Below are positions 4,057-58,851 of a stretch of DNA of 64,000 bases, piece by piece. The translations under genes were made by a program, and so were the position numbers. A model generated the notes under the pieces. It ran no database searches, was not told the DNA's origin, and was given only the letters and a program-made list of their open reading frames with translations. The DNA comes from Dehalococcoidia bacterium. Lineage in GTDB: Bacteria; Chloroflexota; Dehalococcoidia; Lucifugimonadales; UBA3495. Every line of letters starts with the position of its first letter. Position 1 is the stretch's first letter. Location: contig JAJDWF010000113.1 of the NCBI GenBank assembly GCA_022825745.1, forward strand, positions 26,400-90,399, given 5' to 3'.

Positions 4057-4326
4057 TCTCCCAGCGCTGACCGCAGAGGCTGGGAACACAAGACCCACCG
4101 GCACATCTGGGTGGCCGTGCGGCGCTTGACCGACGAGAATCCCAGCATGGGTCTGACCCGGCTTTTCCGAGCCGTCAATCACCTGCATTCCAACTTTTAC
4201 GAGAACGTTGACTCCGCCTCTGATGTCGCCGAGGCATTGGATGTAGTAGAGCGGTTCGTCGGCTTGCTGGAACCGATGGCGTATCAGACTGCGGCCGATT
4301 CCGGTTCCCGCGTGGGGTCAACATAG
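4057..4326 (+). pseudogene. PaREP1-like HEPN gene 3' fragment (copy 1); no start codon, stop lost
   Basis: Open frame ..RRGWEHKTHRHIWVAVRRLTDENPSMGLTRLFRAVNHLHSNFYENVDSASDVAEALDVVERFVGLLEPMA. TAG is mutated to TAT, so the frame runs into hicB. Homologous to CDS 56771..57145. Confidence 0.6.
4061..4283 (+). repeat. 223-bp direct repeat, copy 1
   Basis: Matches 4937..5159 at a constant offset of 876 nt with about 5 mismatches. Ends exactly at the hicB stop codon. Confidence 0.9.
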
Positions 4327-4559
4327 CGGCACACGGGCCGCTCCCACGCCGGCAGCAGTGGTCGGGGCAACGGTTCCGGAACCGTATCTTGATACTCGCC
4401 AGCGTCCTCAAGCCAAAGTCCCATCGCCTCTTTTATGCTTTGCAGCGCCTGCTCATAGGTGTTCCCGTGGGCCATACAGCCGGGCAACTCCGACACCTCA
4501 GCCACGTACAGCGCGTCCTCATCGCTCCAGTAGATGATGATTTCGTATTTATGCATCAC
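4284..4559 (-). CDS. hicB: HicB-family antitoxin
   Basis: MMHKYEIIIYWSDEDALYVAEVSELPGCMAHGNTYEQALQSIKEAMGLWLE is a typical HicB N-terminal fold sequence. Overlaps hicA by 4 nt. Confidence 0.8.
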   Translation of the reverse strand: MMHKYEIIIYWSDEDALYVAEVSELPGCMAHGNTYEQALQSIKEAMGLWLEDAGEYQDTVPEPLPRPLLPAWERPVCRYVDPTREPESAAV

Positions 4560-4810
4560 GGTTCCTCCAATTCGTATTGCAGGATAACACGGCGAACCTG
4601 TCTTACCTGGTACGGCTTGGCATCGCTGCCAATCCGTTGCAAGTTTATTCGCTCCACGCCGGGTTTGCGAAAGATATGATGACCGCCGCGTATCCGCTCG
4701 TCAAACTCCAGGCGGCGCAGCAGGGCGCACAAATCGCTAAACCTGATATTCGCGTCAGAATGTCCGCCGAGGATTCTTTGCATCAAGCGTGAACGTTGCC
4801 TCAACCTCAT
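4556..4810 (-). CDS. hicA: HicA-family mRNA interferase toxin
   Basis: IRFSDLCALLRRLEFDERIRGGHHIFRKPGVERINLQRIGSDAKPYQVRQVRRVILQY matches the HicA/YcfA pattern. Lies upstream of hicB in the usual toxin-first order. Confidence 0.8.
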   Translation of the reverse strand: MRLRQRSRLMQRILGGHSDANIRFSDLCALLRRLEFDERIRGGHHIFRKPGVERINLQRIGSDAKPYQVRQVRRVILQYELEEP

Positions 4811-4869
4811 CCCTCCGGCGGCATTGGACTAGTGGCAGATAGTATCCGGCCATGGTCAAATTTGCGTAG

Positions 4870-5160
4870 TGTGGGCTTATTGTACCCGGCCGCGCAGAGG
4901 CGGATGACGACCACGCCACTGCCCAAATAGTCAAGGCCATCGCCGACCGCAGAGGCTGGGAACACAAAACCCACCGGCACATCTGGGTGGCCGTGCGGCG
5001 CTTGACCGACGAGAATCCCAGCATGGGCCTGACCCGGCTTTTCCGAGCCGCCAATCATCTGCATTCCAACTTCTACGAGAACGTTGACTCCGCCTCTGAT
5101 GTCGCCGAGGCATTGGATGTAGTAGAGCGGTTCGTCGGCTTGCTGGAACCGATGGCGTAG
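4870..5160 (+). pseudogene. PaREP1-like HEPN gene, N-terminally truncated (copy 2)
   Basis: Frame open from 4870 (after TAG 4867-4869) to TAG 5158-5160 with no ATG/GTG/TTG before the internal Met. ..DHATAQIVKAIADRRGWEHKTHRH..RAANHLHSNFYENVD.. About 30 N-terminal codons are missing relative to 56771..57145. Confidence 0.6.
4937..5159 (+). repeat. 223-bp direct repeat, copy 2
   Basis: See copy 1. Together the repeats bracket the 653-bp hicAB segment 4284..4936. Confidence 0.9.
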
Positions 5161-14877: not shown

Positions 14878-15894
14878 TTACCGCGTCCGTTCGTACCGGT
14901 AGTCCCGCGCCGTGCCGCGCTCCGGCGTCGCCGTCGGATTGTTGGGCAGGTAGGCGTAGTCGGGATCCACGCCGACCTTGGGGCCGAGAGTGTTGCGGAG
15001 CGTGCCGATGTGCTCGACCTCCAGCTCCACGGTGTCGCCCGGCTCCAGCCAGCGGGATGCCTCGTAGCCCTTGCGGATGGACTCGCGCACGGAGCCGCCG
15101 CCCACCGTGCCGCTGCCGATCACGTCTCCCGGCGCGATGCGGCTGTCCTTGGCGGCGCGCTCGATGATCTCGCCCCAGGTGTACCAGGCGTTGACCGTCT
15201 CGCCGTCCCGCAGCCAGTCGTCGCCGTTGACGCGGGCGTGGGCCTTGAGGTCCAGGCGGCCGTCCCTGATGTGAGGCATCAACTCGTCGGTGGTGACCAC
15301 CCACGGGCCGATGGACGACGCCGAGTCCTTGCCCTTGGCCGGGCCGAGGCCGAAGGCCATCTCGTCGAATTGCAGGTCCCGCGCGCTCCAGTCGTTGAAA
15401 ATGCAGAACCCGGCGACGTACTGCATAGCCTCGGACGCCGGCACGTTGCTGCCCGCCTTGCCGATGACGCAGCCGATTTCCAGCTCGTAGTCCAGCTGGT
15501 CCGACGCGGCGGGATAAGGCACGTCCTCGTCCGGCCCGTAAATGACCAGCGGGTTGGAGAAGTAGAACACCGGCATCCGGTACCACACCTCGTTGATTTC
15601 CCGCGTGCCCTGCGACGTGGCGTGTTCCTCATAGACGATGTAGTCGCGCACGGTGGGCGGCCGCAGCACCGGCGCGCGCAGCCGCACGTCGGCGAGCGCC
15701 ACCGCCGGCGCGGCCACGTTGCCGGCCAATGCGTCGCCCACCCGGTCAATGGCGGATTCGCCGGTATCCAGCAGCGCGCCAACGTCCCGGATGGTACGAC
15801 GCGCCCCCAGCAGCGAGCTAACGTCCACCACCGCATCATCCCGCAAAACGCCGCACCGCGGCCCGGTTCCGTTGTCGTAAGTCAGCAGTTTCAT
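14878..15894 (-). CDS. Fumarylacetoacetate hydrolase (FAH) family protein
   Basis: 338 aa. FAH-family layout with N-terminal MKLLTYDNG..CGVL and a C-terminal catalytic domain (GFCIFNDWSARD, GDVIGSGTVGGG). Confidence 0.8.
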   Translation of the reverse strand: MKLLTYDNGTGPRCGVLRDDAVVDVSSLLGARRTIRDVGALLDTGESAIDRVGDALAGNVAAPAVALADVRLRAPVLRPPTVRDYIVYEEHATSQGTREINEVWYRMPVFYFSNPLVIYGPDEDVPYPAASDQLDYELEIGCVIGKAGSNVPASEAMQYVAGFCIFNDWSARDLQFDEMAFGLGPAKGKDSASSIGPWVVTTDELMPHIRDGRLDLKAHARVNGDDWLRDGETVNAWYTWGEIIERAAKDSRIAPGDVIGSGTVGGGSVRESIRKGYEASRWLEPGDTVELEVEHIGTLRNTLGPKVGVDPDYAYLPNNPTATPERGTARDYRYERTR

Positions 15895-15918
15895 GTTCGC
15901 AGTTCCTCTTTGGTTTGA

Positions 15919-16317
15919 TTACACAATGTCGGAATACCCGGCCAACCGCTCGGCGTCGTTAATGTAGTCAGCGGTCTGGCGGATGCGACGATGGATTTCG
16001 TCCACTGGTTCACAGATGCCCAGATAAAAGCAGGTTCCATGCAGATGGCCCTGCCGGGAGTAATAGCGGCCGACCAGGAGGTTGTTGATGGCGTTGTCTG
16101 TAGCAGCCAGCCTGACCAGTCCTCGCGTAGTATCCGGGGAAAATTCAGATTCCTCGCCCGTTCGCGCCAGAATCAGCGCATCGGTAGCCCGCTTGGTGGC
16201 GCACCAAGCCTTCTCCGCAGCATCACGGATATCGCCGGCCTCCAGCAGCCGCAGCGCGTCAGCATGAACGGCGCGGGCGTCGGCAAAAATAGCGGGTACG
16301 CGGTCGGTGGTTAGCAT
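15919..16317 (-). CDS. PaREP1-like HEPN-superfamily protein
   Basis: AEKAWCATKRATDALILARTGEE..GRYYSRQGHLHGTCFYLG matches the PaREP1 pattern (EKxWxA..A..A...G... then LHxxFY). Overlaps the upstream GIY-YIG gene by 7 nt. Confidence 0.65.
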   Translation of the reverse strand: MLTTDRVPAIFADARAVHADALRLLEAGDIRDAAEKAWCATKRATDALILARTGEESEFSPDTTRGLVRLAATDNAINNLLVGRYYSRQGHLHGTCFYLGICEPVDEIHRRIRQTADYINDAERLAGYSDIV

Positions 16318-17027
16318 GAGGGTTTGGTCACTCCTATCCGTTCAATCATTTGCTGCAAAGTGTCCAGAAATGCTGGCGTGTAGTCGTCTTCGACATAGTT
16401 ATTATTCCACAGGCCGGACAGCCTGACCCGTTCCCGATCGCTGTGATGGCCCAGCCATCCTGGCGATGGCGGGTCAATCGGCTCGCGCCCGTAGTTACTG
16501 AGCAGCGCGATGGCATTGCGCTCTATGTAGCCGCGCAAACTATCTGGCCCCGGCTCGTCGTCCACGCACAGCCATAGGAATGGCATATCGCCAATAACAG
16601 CGCAGACCTGCCTCTCCATCGGCTGCTCGCTTTCCCTAACCTCTTTTGGAGCGTTACTGCCTTTCCCCCAACGGGGGAAAACCCGACTATTCCGTTCGAT
16701 GAGAGATTGCCCGACAATCAGTCGGAATATAGACCCACGATGATTGCCGCCGTTGCCATTGGCATTGCCACGATGCTGCGAAAGCCGGTTCCAAAGCGTG
16801 GCTTTAGCACTGGGTTTAAGCGCGTGGGTTCCCACCCGCACGATTCGGGGGCCGGTTACGGTGTCGGTACGGATTTCTCCTGCCTCCCGAAAGAAATAGA
16901 CACCCCTTTGCGGCCAGTCCATGCCCCCGTGGCACTCCGATAGCCGGCGCGCACCGCCTATGTTGCGTTCCAGTTGAGCCAGCAGTTCGTAGAACCGGGC
17001 TAGGTGGTATGCGCGCCGGCTGTTCAC
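16311..17027 (-). CDS. GIY-YIG nuclease family protein
   Basis: RGVYFFRE (GIY), IVRVGTH (YIG), HRGSIFR (catalytic Arg region), YIERNAIALLS (Glu/Asn). Lower GC than the flanks. Confidence 0.75.
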   Translation of the reverse strand: MNSRRAYHLARFYELLAQLERNIGGARRLSECHGGMDWPQRGVYFFREAGEIRTDTVTGPRIVRVGTHALKPSAKATLWNRLSQHRGNANGNGGNHRGSIFRLIVGQSLIERNSRVFPRWGKGSNAPKEVRESEQPMERQVCAVIGDMPFLWLCVDDEPGPDSLRGYIERNAIALLSNYGREPIDPPSPGWLGHHSDRERVRLSGLWNNNYVEDDYTPAFLDTLQQMIERIGVTKPSC

Positions 17028-17750: not shown

Positions 17751-17759
17751 TGGTATAAT
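17751..17759 (+). promoter_or_regulatory. Extended -10 promoter TGgTATAAT
   Basis: 47 nt upstream of ATG 17806 of the PaREP1-like pair. Confidence 0.45.
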
Positions 17760-17805
17760 GCGCGGCAGGCGAAGCACACGATCATGGAGATTCGCGAGGG
17801 ATAAG

Positions 17806-18177
17806 ATGAGCGCGCCGAAAATGGAAATGACACCCTTGGAATACGTGGACGCCTCCAAGCGTGAGCAGGCGGCCGGCAATCATATCAAGGCCGCGGCGCT
17901 GATGTGGCAGGCGACCCAGGCCACCTTCGCCGCGCTCGCTGACGCGCACGGCGTGGAGCTCAAGAGCCTGGACGAAGACGATCTGATTATGCTGGCCAGA
18001 GCGTTGGAAGCGGACGGCTCTGTGCCCAAGTGGCGCTACAGAGGGGGCCTTTCTCCGGGTTCTCTGCTAAAAGACCACGCTGAAATGGAAGTGTTGGAGA
18101 GTTATCAACTGGACTTGGCTTACGAAACCGCTGAGCAGTTCATCCGGGGGTGCTTTGACAACCGATCATCCCCCTGA
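17806..18177 (+). CDS. PaREP1-like helical protein, type A (cassette 1, first gene)
   Basis: ..YVDASKREQAAGNHIKAAALMWQATQATFAALADAHG.. aligns with 57142..57546 (..YLDAAAADYVAGDLKGSSANMWKASELAATAVAKSRG..). Confidence 0.65.
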   Translation: MSAPKMEMTPLEYVDASKREQAAGNHIKAAALMWQATQATFAALADAHGVELKSLDEDDLIMLARALEADGSVPKWRYRGGLSPGSLLKDHAEMEVLESYQLDLAYETAEQFIRGCFDNRSSP

Positions 18178-18556
18178 ACAGTACCGGCAAAGAGCCGTCC
18201 GCCATGAAGCCCGAGCGCGCAACTATCGCCGTCAGGCCGATTTACTATTGGAACGGGATAATGACACCGACTGCGCCGGCGCGCTCCTGTATGAAGCGGC
18301 CAAGCAGTGCATCAATGCAGTTGCCAACCAACGTGGGGAAAATCCCGGCACAACCGGCGGCAAGGTCAATGTACTACGAGAAGTTGCAGCAGAGGTTCCG
18401 AACGGGCCGGCCTTGATGCAAGGTTGGCAACGTGCCGACAAACTCCATATCTACGCCGACCGTGGTCACCTTGACGCCGACGAATATGATGAAGCATGGC
18501 AACAGGCCCAAGCCTTCATCACCGCCATGCTCACCATATATTCTCGCAACGCCTGA
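18155..18556 (+). CDS. PaREP1-like HEPN protein, type B (cassette 1, second gene)
   Basis: TTG start overlaps the upstream gene by 23 nt. ALLYEAAKQCINAVANQRG..WQRADKLHIYADRGHL aligns with 56771..57145 (MLWGAAIHSVNAVAMQRG..AARHRLHPNFDKGFL). Confidence 0.6.
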   Translation: MTTDHPPEQYRQRAVRHEARARNYRRQADLLLERDNDTDCAGALLYEAAKQCINAVANQRGENPGTTGGKVNVLREVAAEVPNGPALMQGWQRADKLHIYADRGHLDADEYDEAWQQAQAFITAMLTIYSRNA

Positions 18557-55989: not shown

Positions 55990-56778
55990 TCAGGTCGTCC
56001 ACACGGGCGGACGTTTTTCCAGGAAAGCGGTGATGCCCTCATGCGCGTCGTCTTCCAGCAGGTTGTCCACCATCACCTTGCCTGCAAACTGGTACGCCGA
56101 CGGACGGTCCATTTCAATTTGCTGGTAGAACGCCGCCTTGCCCAACGCCAACGTCTGCGCGCTGGCCGATGCGATCTGCCTGGCGAGGTCCATCACCTGC
56201 TCTTCCAGCTCTTCCGCCGGTGCGATGCGGCTGATCAGTCCGAACTCCAACGCTTCCCGCGCCGATATGGGCCGCCCCGTCAGCAGCATTTCCATGGCCT
56301 TCTTGGGCATCACGGAGCGCGCCACGGCAACGCCCGGCGTGGTGCAGAACAGGCCGATCTGCACGCCCGGCGTGGCAAACGCGGCGGTGTCCGCTGCGAC
56401 GGCTATGTCGCAGGTGGCAACCAACTGGCACCCGGCGGCGGTCGCCAGACCCTGCACCTGCGCGATCACCGGCTTGGGCAGCAGGCGGATACCCTCCATG
56501 ACGCGAGTGCAGGCGTCAAAGACGGCGGTGTAGTCCTCGGCGTCCCCGTTCACCAACTCGTTAAGGTCGTGCCCCGAGCTGAACACCGGCCCCTCAGAGC
56601 GTATCACCACCACGCGGGCTTCGGGATCCTTCGCAATCCAATCCAGCCATTCTTCCAACGCCGCCAGCGTGCGCGATGACAACACGTTGCGCTTCCTCGG
56701 GTTGGTCAGCGTCAGCACAGCGATGCCGTCAAGGGTGCGGTCGTAAGATAGGGTTTCGGAGTGAAGTTCTTTAACCAT
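55990..56778 (-). CDS. Enoyl-CoA hydratase/isomerase family protein
   Basis: Start MVKELHSE.. IAVLTLTNPRKRNVL..VFSSGHDL..AQVQGLATAAGCQL. Confidence 0.85.
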   Translation of the reverse strand: MVKELHSETLSYDRTLDGIAVLTLTNPRKRNVLSSRTLAALEEWLDWIAKDPEARVVVIRSEGPVFSSGHDLNELVNGDAEDYTAVFDACTRVMEGIRLLPKPVIAQVQGLATAAGCQLVATCDIAVAADTAAFATPGVQIGLFCTTPGVAVARSVMPKKAMEMLLTGRPISAREALEFGLISRIAPAEELEEQVMDLARQIASASAQTLALGKAAFYQQIEMDRPSAYQFAGKVMVDNLLEDDAHEGITAFLEKRPPVWTT

Positions 56779-57145
56779 ATTCACCTCCGGATTTAGCAAT
56801 TTCCAGCATCCGATCAACAAAATGCTGCACATCCTGGCGGTAATCGTTAAACTGCGCTTCAGTGAGGAAGCCTTTGTCGAAATTGGGATGTAGCCGATGT
56901 CGGGCGGCCCAAAACCCGCCAGTCAGTACACTATCTTCATATTGGTCTGCGAGACGGTCAACCACATCGCTTTTGTGGCTATACTTCCCGTGATCCCACC
57001 CTCGCTGCATGGCGACAGCGTTGACCGAGTGGATTGCGGCGCCCCACAACATTTCGGAAGCGAGCAAGTTTTCACCGCTGGCTAGCATTTGCTCAGCGGC
57101 CTGCAAACAGGATGCCACCATTCGGATGTGGTCGTTGGGGGTCAT
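56771..57145 (-). CDS. PaREP1-like HEPN protein, type B (cassette 2, second gene)
   Basis: EMLWGAAIHSVNAVAMQRGWDHGKYSHKSDV..FWAARHRLHPNFDKGFL. ~47% GC. ATGA overlap with the upstream partner. Its stop overlaps the downstream enoyl-CoA hydratase start by 8 nt. Confidence 0.7.
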   Translation of the reverse strand: MTPNDHIRMVASCLQAAEQMLASGENLLASEMLWGAAIHSVNAVAMQRGWDHGKYSHKSDVVDRLADQYEDSVLTGGFWAARHRLHPNFDKGFLTEAQFNDYRQDVQHFVDRMLEIAKSGGEYG

Positions 57146-57546
57146 GCAGATTGGTCATGCTGTGCGGCCTGATCCATCAGCTGAGTTACGAACCGTAGTA
57201 TGATTGGTCGTGCCATCCTGATTTCACCACGCTCCAAAAAATCGTCCCGGATATTGTCCCAAAGGGTATCGGCGACGGCCCAACTCGCGGACAGGTGTAA
57301 ATCTGAGACCTCTTTGTTCAGGGTGCGTACCGCCGACTCCAAGTCGTCTTTGGTCTGGTGAGGCCAACCTCTGGATTTGGCGACTGCGGTTGCGGCCAGT
57401 TCGCTGGCCTTCCACATATTTGCGGAGCTGCCTTTTAGGTCACCAGCTACGTAGTCGGCAGCAGCAGCATCCAGATACTGGTAAGGCGTCTTAGGCGCCG
57501 GCTTGCGACTAGACGCTTTTTGAGTACGCGGTTTTGCGGTCATCAT
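57142..57546 (-). CDS. PaREP1-like helical protein, type A (cassette 2, first gene)
   Basis: SSANMWKASELAATAVAKSRGWPHQTKDDL..TLWDNIRDDFLE. Paralogue of 17806..18177. Confidence 0.65.
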   Translation of the reverse strand: MMTAKPRTQKASSRKPAPKTPYQYLDAAAADYVAGDLKGSSANMWKASELAATAVAKSRGWPHQTKDDLESAVRTLNKEVSDLHLSASWAVADTLWDNIRDDFLERGEIRMARPIILRFVTQLMDQAAQHDQSA

Positions 57547-57678
57547 TGGCTTGCTTCCCTTTCCACTAGCGCAGGTTAGGCGTGTCGGGCAACCTCGCTA
57601 TTGCCTCACACTGTATTCACCAACTCTACGAAACTATCTTGTAGCCGTTGGCGCCGCGTTTCATAGCTGTCCAACACG

Positions 57679-58851
57679 CTACCCGCGCGGCAACCCCAAC
57701 CCCCGGCTGGCGATGATGTTGCGCTGCACTTCGCTGGTGCCCGCCGCGATGGTGTGCGAGAACGCCCGCAGCCAGTGCTCCTGCATGTCGGCTTCCATGG
57801 GCGTCCACTTGGCGTCGCGCAGGCCGCCGTACATGCCCATGACCTCCAGGCACGACGCGGTGGTGCGCTGCACGGTCTCGCTGCCGAACACCTTGGACAT
57901 GGACGCTTCCTTGTTGGGCACCAGGCCCTCGCCCTGCATCCACGCCACGTTGTAGGCGATCAGCCGCGCCACCTCGCACTCGATGTAGCGGTCGGCCAGC
58001 GCGTTGCGCACCCACGGCTCCTGGCTCAGCGGCTTGCCGTTGCGCGAGATGCCGTCGGCCCACTTTCGAGTGTCGTCCAGGTGCCGGAACGCCGCCGCCG
58101 AGTAGTCGATACCGGAACGCTCGAAGTCCAGCAGCGTCACCGCAACGTACCAGCCGCGGTTCTCCTCGCCCACGATGTTGCGGGCCGGCACGCGTACGTT
58201 GTCAAAGATAATCTGGTTGAACTCGTGCCGGTTGCCCATGTTGATGATGGGGCGCACCTCGATGCCCGGCGTCTTCATGTCCACCAGGAAGAAGCTGATG
58301 CCCCGGTGCTTGGGCGCGTCGGTGTCGGTGCGGGTGAGCAGCATGATCCAGTCGCCCCGGTGTCCCATGGACGTCCAGATCTTGCTGCCGTTGATGACGA
58401 ACTCGTCGCCGTCGCGGATGGCCCGGGTGCTCAGCGACGCCAGGTCGGAGCCGGATTCGGGCTCGCTGTACCCCTGGCACCACTGTACCTCGCCTTTGGC
58501 CACCGGCGGCAGGTGCTCGGCCTTCTGCTCGTCGGTGCCGTGGATCATCAGGGTCGCGCCCATCATGCGCACGCCAAAGTTGTCCCGGCCCGGCGCGCGG
58601 TGGTAGGTCATGGCCTCGTTGAAGATGGCCGTGCGTACCGGCGATGCCTTCTGCCCGCCGTACTCCTCCGGCCAGTGCATGGTCAGCCAGCCCCGGTCGG
58701 CCAGCTTGCGCCGCATGTCCAGCGTGCGATTCCAGTTTTCCTCGCCTTCACCTCGTTCCCCCAGTTCCCACTGCGGCACGTATTCTTCGGAGATGAACTG
58801 CTGGAGGTCGCTCTGGAAAGTGGCGTCCTCGGTACTGAACTGGAACTCCAT
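57679..58851 (-). CDS. Acyl-CoA dehydrogenase family protein
   Basis: 390 aa. QGYSEPESGSDLAS motif, with C-terminal ..GTSEVQRNIIA. Confidence 0.85.
   Translation of the reverse strand: MEFQFSTEDATFQSDLQQFISEEYVPQWELGERGEGEENWNRTLDMRRKLADRGWLTMHWPEEYGGQKASPVRTAIFNEAMTYHRAPGRDNFGVRMMGATLMIHGTDEQKAEHLPPVAKGEVQWCQGYSEPESGSDLASLSTRAIRDGDEFVINGSKIWTSMGHRGDWIMLLTRTDTDAPKHRGISFFLVDMKTPGIEVRPIINMGNRHEFNQIIFDNVRVPARNIVGEENRGWYVAVTLLDFERSGIDYSAAAFRHLDDTRKWADGISRNGKPLSQEPWVRNALADRYIECEVARLIAYNVAWMQGEGLVPNKEASMSKVFGSETVQRTTASCLEVMGMYGGLRDAKWTPMEADMQEHWLRAFSHTIAAGTSEVQRNIIASRGLGLPRG

Follow-up and report, generated by a model that had tools for sequence, protein, structure and literature searches.

The RNase activity of Cas13, Csm6, RnlA and many toxins resides in HEPN domains. 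The PaREP1 and PaREP8 proteins form the HEPN-T(Parep1/8) clade of this superfamily, in which the Arg of the canonical Rx4-6H motif is not conserved and the His is kept (PMC3710099). Their genes occur in tandem Parep operons with no linkage to MNT genes and with no antitoxin identified (PMC3710099, PMC2701414, PMC3632139), and PaREP1 is counted among the HEPN toxin-like domains that have no known antitoxin, its distribution being archaeal and mostly in thermophiles (PMC3710099, PMC3632139). With structures from Sulfolobus solfataricus (2q00 and 2jpu), PaREP1 is a structurally solved, functionally orphan branch of HEPN. Here we describe a PaREP1-like gene pair, A2 and B2, in a 64,000-nt stretch of contig JAJDWF010000113.1 from a Dehalococcoidia bacterium (hereafter the window), where the two genes form a cassette between an acyl-CoA dehydrogenase (ACAD) gene and an enoyl-CoA hydratase (ECH) gene. 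On balance, and with caution, we consider it somewhat probable that the pair is a heteromeric HEPN-fold conflict module of toxin-antitoxin-like character, co-inherited as an A+B insert. Although the PaREP1 family is known, its bacterial expansion, the fixed A+B arrangement, an A subfamily with a motif of its own and the operon hotspot are not described in the PaREP1 literature that we searched.

B2 belongs to the PaREP1 family by profile (PF05942; 31.1 bits, E 2.4e-7, the gathering score being 24.4 bits), whereas A2 lies just under the threshold and fails on its own score (21.2 bits, E 2.9e-4). A2 is nevertheless tied to the family, because the A-type profile matches the B-type profile (hhalign probability 99.4%, E 4e-21). 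AlphaFold (AF2) models of both proteins have a high predicted local distance difference test score (pLDDT 90.4 for B2 and 90.5 for A2), A2 being modelled as one helical bundle behind a 20-residue disordered N-terminus, and the top Foldseek match for both is 2q00_A (template modelling (TM) scores 0.70/0.73 for B2 and 0.68/0.75 for A2), followed by the classical HEPN domains 2hsb, 1wol, 1o3u, 1ufb and sacsin. A profile of the His-bearing copies in the window genome also matches 2jpu/2q00 (E 3.4e-7), with the conserved His aligned. The PaREP1 assignment made in an earlier sequence-only reading of the window is borne out by these results, no unrelated family claims the proteins in the profile searches, and its remark that the family is known mainly from archaea agrees with the literature (PMC3710099, PMC3632139). 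A search of the cassette proteins against NCBIfam returned nothing meaningful. In the PDB, the two A-type profiles retrieved no HEPN or PaREP1 chain, one giving nothing significant and the other only designed miniproteins (E 0.007-0.009), and the sequence of B2 alone gave non-significant matches only. Among these was the anti-CRISPR RNase AcrVA1 (E 0.19), which B2 weakly resembles over residues 57-101, centred on aaRHrlHpNfDkgFLtE in B2 and afRHKFHSNKDSLFLSE in AcrVA1.

Compared with the described PaREP1/PaREP8 systems, the locus shares the profile membership of B2, a HEPN-type fold in both partners (TM 0.68-0.75 to 2q00), a His without the canonical Arg (in B2), the lack of an MNT partner, the tandem paralogues and the lineage-specific expansions. 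It differs in its host, a mesophilic sponge-associated SAR202/Dehalococcoidia bacterium, whereas descriptions of the family come from thermophilic Crenarchaeota; the archaeal, thermophilic distribution that characterizes PaREP1, a descriptive trait and no structural one, is not seen in the family of the window. It also differs in being a fixed heterologous A+B unit embedded in a metabolic operon, and in the A-type itself, which is sub-threshold in Pfam, annotated as hypothetical, and has Arg or another residue in place of the His.

Sequence comparison identifies A and B as old sister subfamilies that have duplicated and moved together, the gene order always being A then B. In a tree of the copies from the window's own genome, nine of the ten A-types form one clade, seven of the eight paired B-types form another group and most singles a third, and partner genes show matching sister pairs (A_C71 with A_C114, and B_C71 with B_C114). 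A scan of species-representative genomes with a close A-type alignment gave 18 related loci, all in Dehalococcoidia; at every one (18/18) a B-type gene overlaps the A gene and comes after it, although three of the B genes are degraded, and the named taxonomic range of the A-types is a lower bound. An A-type profile searched against 1.84 billion representative proteins found 522 relatives at E <= 1e-3, and two-domain natural fusions, in R-H as well as H-R combinations, account for 24 of the best 150 global matches. The A-type relatives listed from a search of 5.8 billion proteins are without Pfam annotation, and the few that bear a name are called hypothetical.

Because HEPN domains generally act in pairs, and given the strict A/B pairing and the natural fusions, we propose that A2 and B2 would form a heterodimer. 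Such a dimer would set the invariant His of B beside the equivalent site of A, usually Arg and often part of R-x4-H/Y, with Trp in the present case. The proposed principle is that of Cas13, Csm6/Csx1, RnlA and the RNase L/Ire1 KEN domains, in which two HEPN domains juxtapose their motif helices into one site, and the two-domain fusions of the A/B family mimic this tandem-HEPN arrangement. In contrast, those proteins have two Rx4-6H motifs, whereas here a His (B) is combined with an Arg or other residue (A), and activity here is putative.

According to the alignments, A and B carry different, individually conserved residues at the position where HEPN domains place their catalytic motif. In B2 this residue is His86, within LHPNFDKGF, and the His is invariant in B-types and singles both in the window genome (20/20) and at related loci (21/21). 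Around it B2 reads R82-H-R-L-H86, which makes an R-x3-H whose Arg related B-types lack (VAMQIH). At the same column A2 has Trp96 (TGG; motif W-x4-D), also seen in two independent metagenome contigs, in contrast to the Arg (CGG or CGT) of its four orthologues. Arg occupies the column at 15 of the 18 related A-type loci, 12 of the 18 reading R-D-N-A-x-H, which is a formal Rx4H, and in 58 of 119 global representatives. Within the window's own genome the A-types vary more, Arg being kept in two of eight. Overall, the A-type motif R-[DE]-N-A-x-[H/Y] is conserved, and the idea that A is simply a dead copy was set aside as too simple for that reason.

These residues bear on two rival explanations. 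In a classical type II toxin-antitoxin system B2 would be a HEPN-type RNase toxin and A2 a catalytically degenerate paralogue that neutralises it through an inactive heterodimer, and PaREP1's 'missing antitoxin' would then be the toxin itself in a dead copy. Several features fit this view: A2 lacks the His that B2 keeps, both genes are small, with A upstream, B downstream and a 4-nt overlap between them, the ACAD/ECH hotspot described below holds other small toxin-antitoxin-like two-gene modules, distribution is patchy and copy number variable, and the literature names no PaREP1 antitoxin (PMC3632139). However, A-types have not simply decayed, as the counts for Arg and R-x4-H above indicate, and A2 has no DNA-binding module. 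In addition, stable fusions exist in both the A-B and B-A orders, which is unusual for a labile antitoxin, and His-bearing singles occur without an A partner. We regard the type II explanation as unlikely, though a credible contender.

The second rival is an obligate heterodimeric enzyme with one asymmetric HEPN-like site, A giving the Arg (with His/Tyr at +5) and B the His, that would act as an RNase in defence or RNA processing. The A-type Arg falls exactly on the alignment column of the B-type His and has [DE]-N behind it, an arrangement also found in canonical HEPN R-N/D motifs; strict A-then-B pairing and natural fusions fit a stable complex; and HEPN active sites are generally composite across the dimer (PMC3710099). 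On the other hand, a split site implies that the R96W copy of the window would be impaired, yet A2 shows no relaxed constraint: its dN is 0.43 when measured to the outgroup L006, and that of its orthologues 0.41-0.42. Arg is moreover present in just two of the eight A-types of the genome. This explanation seems to us decidedly unlikely. In its boldest form, the partner of the orphan PaREP1 would be a paralogue that databases fail to recognise, the two making an obligate A/B heterodimer with a split site (Arg, often in R-x4-H/Y, from A and His from B) and acting as an asymmetric HEPN RNase; this we hold to be a long shot. Were it true, the module would have spread to dozens of copies in sponge-symbiont SAR202 by lodging before housekeeping genes, whose translation would then depend on it, and the R96W copy would be a naturally altered one, kept for ECH coupling or for a changed specificity.

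Three findings change the picture of PaREP1: its massive expansion in mesophilic sponge-symbiont bacteria, its occurrence there in a fixed pair whose other member belongs to an unannotated sister subfamily, and the complementary residues of the partners at the motif position. They yield a concrete, testable hypothesis about the mode of action of these proteins. Fusions, pairs, singles and the Arg-to-Trp allele offer natural variants for such work.

HepT-MntA (HEPN-MNT) systems are the other obvious comparison. As in those, a small HEPN-fold protein is encoded downstream of, and overlapping, its partner gene in mobile, patchily distributed modules, and B2 has weak structural matches to the HepT toxins 7bxo, 6m6w and 7ae6 (TM ~0.5, weaker than those above). 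The locus differs, however, in having no nucleotidyltransferase, its neighbours being ACAD, A2, ECH and DinB, and the partner is a HEPN-fold paralogue; B2 is also without Rx4-6H, and neutralisation by AMPylation cannot apply.

The junction in which the pair lies varies in content within the genus. The gene order ACAD-ECH-DinB is conserved throughout (ACAD 95-98% and ECH 81-93% identical), with ECH orthologues in every congener searched (17/17, plus G018 and G021). In three congeners (G003, G004 and G010) the junction is empty, the ACAD stop and ECH start being 5-15 nt apart; nine other congener loci have a DUF6883 gene and a DUF4926 region with a G+C content of 53-58% (G006, G009 and G011 differ); and the A+B pair is found in the window (G000), in G016, G018 and G021 and in metagenome contigs, the A2/B2 orthologues being always between ACAD and ECH. 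Some A+B loci also retain a DUF4926-ECH fusion. On this comparative evidence A2/B2 is a discrete insert, and the ACAD/ECH junction appears as a hotspot for varied small two-gene modules. The claim that the cassette was inserted into a transcription unit is upheld by the three congeners with adjacent ACAD and ECH and by the further ones with other two-gene modules at the junction. As for the comparison with strains lacking the insert that had been proposed, empty junctions do exist, but the insert is not strain-specific: a strain-specific insertion was ruled out because four species or more have the pair, as do several contigs from metagenomes.

The DUF6883/DUF4926 modules share with the cassette the exact same ACAD/ECH junction, in other species, and are likewise low-G+C small pairs abutting ECH. 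They belong to unrelated folds and families and, in contrast to B2, which does no more than overlap ECH, DUF4926 frequently continues into ECH as an in-frame fusion. With its empty, alternative and replaced states open to comparison, the junction is a clean natural hotspot of small conflict modules within a metabolic operon.

The cassette is compositionally foreign. Its G+C content is 54.1%, versus 63-66% in the flanking genes and 63.7% in the genome, and the figure of ~47% given in the sequence-only reading was too low. The contrast is clearer at third codon positions (GC3) than in total G+C, with 57-58% in the cassette and 81-93% in the flanks. Both genes are under purifying selection, as judged from the ratio of non-synonymous to synonymous divergence (dN/dS; pairwise, five loci), which is 0.11-0.16 for A2 and 0.11-0.20 for B2. 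Spurious open reading frames (ORFs) in a low-GC spacer were considered and ruled out by these ratios (0.11-0.20) together with the confident fold predictions.

Relative to G018, the cassette of the window lies in a sharply bounded block of low identity (Table 1), outside of which a sliding profile gives 84-97% nucleotide identity in ACAD and the body of ECH. Between the window and its three orthologues the cassette dS is 1.0-2.2, which is 3-7 times that of the adjacent ACAD tail (0.32-0.36), whereas among the three orthologues themselves cassette and flank are equally diverged. With L006 as outgroup, a relative-rate comparison showed no acceleration of the window lineage. Because the divergent block is bounded, the cassette dS is high and the rate is not raised, the cassette of the window reads as a probable replacement by an old divergent allele and not as local decay.

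Considering the roles of the HEPN superfamily, the hotspot behaviour, the expansion pattern and the conflict-like neighbours within the window (a HicAB pair and a PADLOC candidate gene homologous to PDC-M57B), the conflict module that we favour would be a selfish or defensive RNA-targeting system and no part of fatty-acid metabolism. The locus has the layout of a type II toxin-antitoxin system in that two small, co-directional genes overlap, their distribution is patchy and occupancy of the site varies. The module would ride on the operon transcript, and its 3' end would provide ECH with a ribosome-binding site and a start context, which would help to keep the insert in place.

The nucleotide-level junctions are collected with the other features in Table 1. 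Both ORFs lie at the coordinates given in the sequence-only reading and on the minus strand, they contain the peptide strings that it quoted, and the two overlaps that it reported, between A2 and B2 and between B2 and ECH, are present. The ATGA shared by the A2 stop and B2 start points to translational coupling. B2 ends in GGAGGTGAATATGGTTAA, with the ECH ATG at 56778-56776, and the junction GAGGTGAATATGG of the window recurs in G018. A Pfam scan places the flanking ACAD, ECH and DinB-family genes all on the strand of the cassette.

Table 1. Positions of the A2/B2 cassette, its junctions and flanks, and the other family members in the window.
Feature	Positions	Strand	Evidence or detail
A2, A-type partner gene	57142..57546	minus	ORF, 134 aa, HEPN/PaREP1 fold
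B2, B-type partner gene	56771..57145	minus	ORF, 124 aa, PaREP1-family HEPN-fold protein
ATGA overlap, A2 stop/B2 start	57142..57145	minus	sequence GCATGACC
8-nt overlap ATGGTTAA, ECH start with last B2 codons and stop	56771..56778	minus	sequence
GGAGGTG, Shine-Dalgarno-like element for ECH, inside B2 3' end	56782..56788	minus	sequence
Enoyl-CoA hydratase (ECH), downstream of cassette	55990..56778	minus	262 aa from ATG at 56778; PF00378 E 1.2e-56
Acyl-CoA dehydrogenase (ACAD), upstream of cassette	57679..58851	minus	three ACAD Pfam domains
Spacer from ACAD stop to A2 start, 132 nt	57547..57678	minus	~15 nt in orthologous cassettes
Divergent block relative to G018	56600..57700	minus	identity 57-84%; spans cassette and first ~170 nt of ECH
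Cassette 1, distant paralogous A+B pair	17758..18556	plus	A1 17758-18177, B1 18155-18556
Single His-bearing PaREP1 gene	15919..16317	minus	PF05942 29.4 bits; 7-nt overlap with upstream ORF 16311-17027
Two PaREP1 C-terminal fragments (4111-4326, 4987-5160)	4061..5160	plus	inside 223-nt direct repeats

In the spacer a consensus promoter was not found, a promoter and terminator scan of 56600-57800 gave no promoter and no convincing terminator, and a repeat search around the cassette gave no flanking direct or inverted repeats of the kind that mark a transposon or integration site.

The tight coupling to ECH, whose ribosome-binding site is inside B2, is in keeping with a third rival explanation, in which the pair would be a domesticated, non-catalytic helical-bundle pair, for example a regulator or adaptor of the expression or enzymes of the adjacent operon. 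At seven loci of the genome, namely five singles, the C114 pair and B2-ECH itself, a PaREP1-like gene has a co-directional gene, confirmed as housekeeping or metabolic, at most 41 nt downstream, and because many copies directly precede housekeeping genes, the coupling to ECH is typical of the family in this genome. The absence of the canonical catalytic motif and the purifying selection are also in keeping with domestication. However, three congeners run the operon without the insert and others run it with unrelated modules, so that the ACAD/ECH pathway can do without the pair. Moreover, the genes downstream have no functional relation to each other: they encode an MnmA-type tRNA enzyme, a UPF0004/radical-SAM methylthiotransferase, a CoA-transferase III, an amidohydrolase, an FAA hydrolase, a DAO oxidoreductase and ECH. 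Foreign GC3 and a copy number that varies widely among congeners also speak against domestication, which we find highly doubtful.

Several observations nonetheless weigh against a conflict module, and they bear on different parts of that reading. To our knowledge no PaREP1 protein has been shown to interact physically, to be toxic or to act as an RNase. A catalytic site is called into question by the lack of the canonical HEPN Rx4-6H in both B2 and A2, and a simple toxin-antitoxin system by the Pfam scan of A2, which found PaREP1 only and no DNA-binding domain of the kind typical of antitoxins (ribbon-helix-helix, helix-turn-helix or AbrB). Ten His-bearing singles of the window genome have no A partner, which is hard to reconcile with B-types as toxins that need A. 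As regards defence and mobility, A2, B2, A1, B1 and the single copy had no match in PADLOC-DB 2.0 at E <= 0.1, and tblastn of B2 found no match in plasmid and phage collections, which are poor in SAR202, so that this second search gives no sign that known mobile replicons carry it. The conservation of the pair in synteny under purifying selection, in at least four species, and the many family members directly upstream of housekeeping genes would both fit a domesticated cellular role. At the RNA level, the only trace found of the cassette is one exact 151-nt contig inside A2 (57297-57447) from a coral metatranscriptome run (X25), too little to establish co-transcription and weak as evidence of expression.

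The census of the family in the 2.99-Mb assembly, done with an iterated hidden Markov model, gave 30 domains in 29 ORFs with eight tandem sets, one of which is a fused double A followed by B. All 25 genomes of the genus have PF05942 matches (7-82 per genome), and of the other genera of the order, 16 of which were sampled, the family is present in 5; across Chloroflexota it is present in 15 of 301 genomes and 6 of 172 genera sampled. The family is a lineage-specific expansion with a patchy distribution, and not a core gene set; the alternative raised in the sequence-only reading, that of common core genes with uniform composition, fails on the 6/172 genera, the 7-82 copies within the genus and the deviant GC3. 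All related loci come from metagenome-assembled genomes of Dehalococcoidia/SAR202, and the sequencing runs in which the locus occurs come for the most part from sponge metagenomes, while some are marine or unlabelled.

Within the window we could confirm the seven family members that had been counted, namely A1, B1, A2, B2, the single gene and the two fragments. About 0.64 members are expected per 64 kb, and by our own estimate the Poisson probability of seven is ~5e-6. The description of the two cassettes as paralogous stands insofar as their similarity is significant (A2 vs A1 25% identity, E 3e-7; B2 vs B1 30%, E 3e-11; A2 vs B2 27%, E 1e-7), but they are just 25-30% identical. Cassettes 1 and 2 are old paralogues and not recent copies. 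A recent duplication of cassette 1 was rejected on this identity and on the separate tree groups of the A and B genes. When the other copies in the window were scored with PF05942, the single gene passed, B1 and the two fragments were sub-threshold and A1 had no match.

Further observations were made at related loci and elsewhere in the genome. DUF4926 is in frame with ECH, with no stop between them, in L022, L027, L009/L039 and L006 (open frames of 324-401 aa), and the gene call of L006 has DUF4926 and ECH_1 as one product. Extra upstream cargo was seen in G001 and G012 (L026 and L029), as a 184-287 aa protein with a weak, below cut-off match to GmrSD_C (21.6 bits), and in G011 and G006 (L032 and L033), as a 286-426 aa HATPase_c_4-like protein. 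On contigs C50, C77, C97, C114 and C124 and at 14878-16317 of the window, PaREP1-like genes were noted 0-41 nt ahead of housekeeping or metabolic genes that run in the same direction. The fused double A lies on contig C144 (15125-17301, plus strand), where two A-type domains in one open frame are followed by an overlapping B-type gene, and a 251-aa relative of this fused double A (P0023) is present in a public protein set. In the window, the ORF at 16311-17027 (minus strand, 238 aa) has no Pfam match and matches the PADLOC candidate defence protein PDC-M57B (E 2.4e-84), which would link the single His-type PaREP1 gene to a candidate anti-phage system. Lastly, the direct repeats at 4061-4283 and 4937-5159 are 97% identical and bracket a HicB/HicA pair (4284-4559 and 4556-4810, minus strand), and in the region 4061-5160 an 876-nt duplication or insertion seems to have disrupted a family member.

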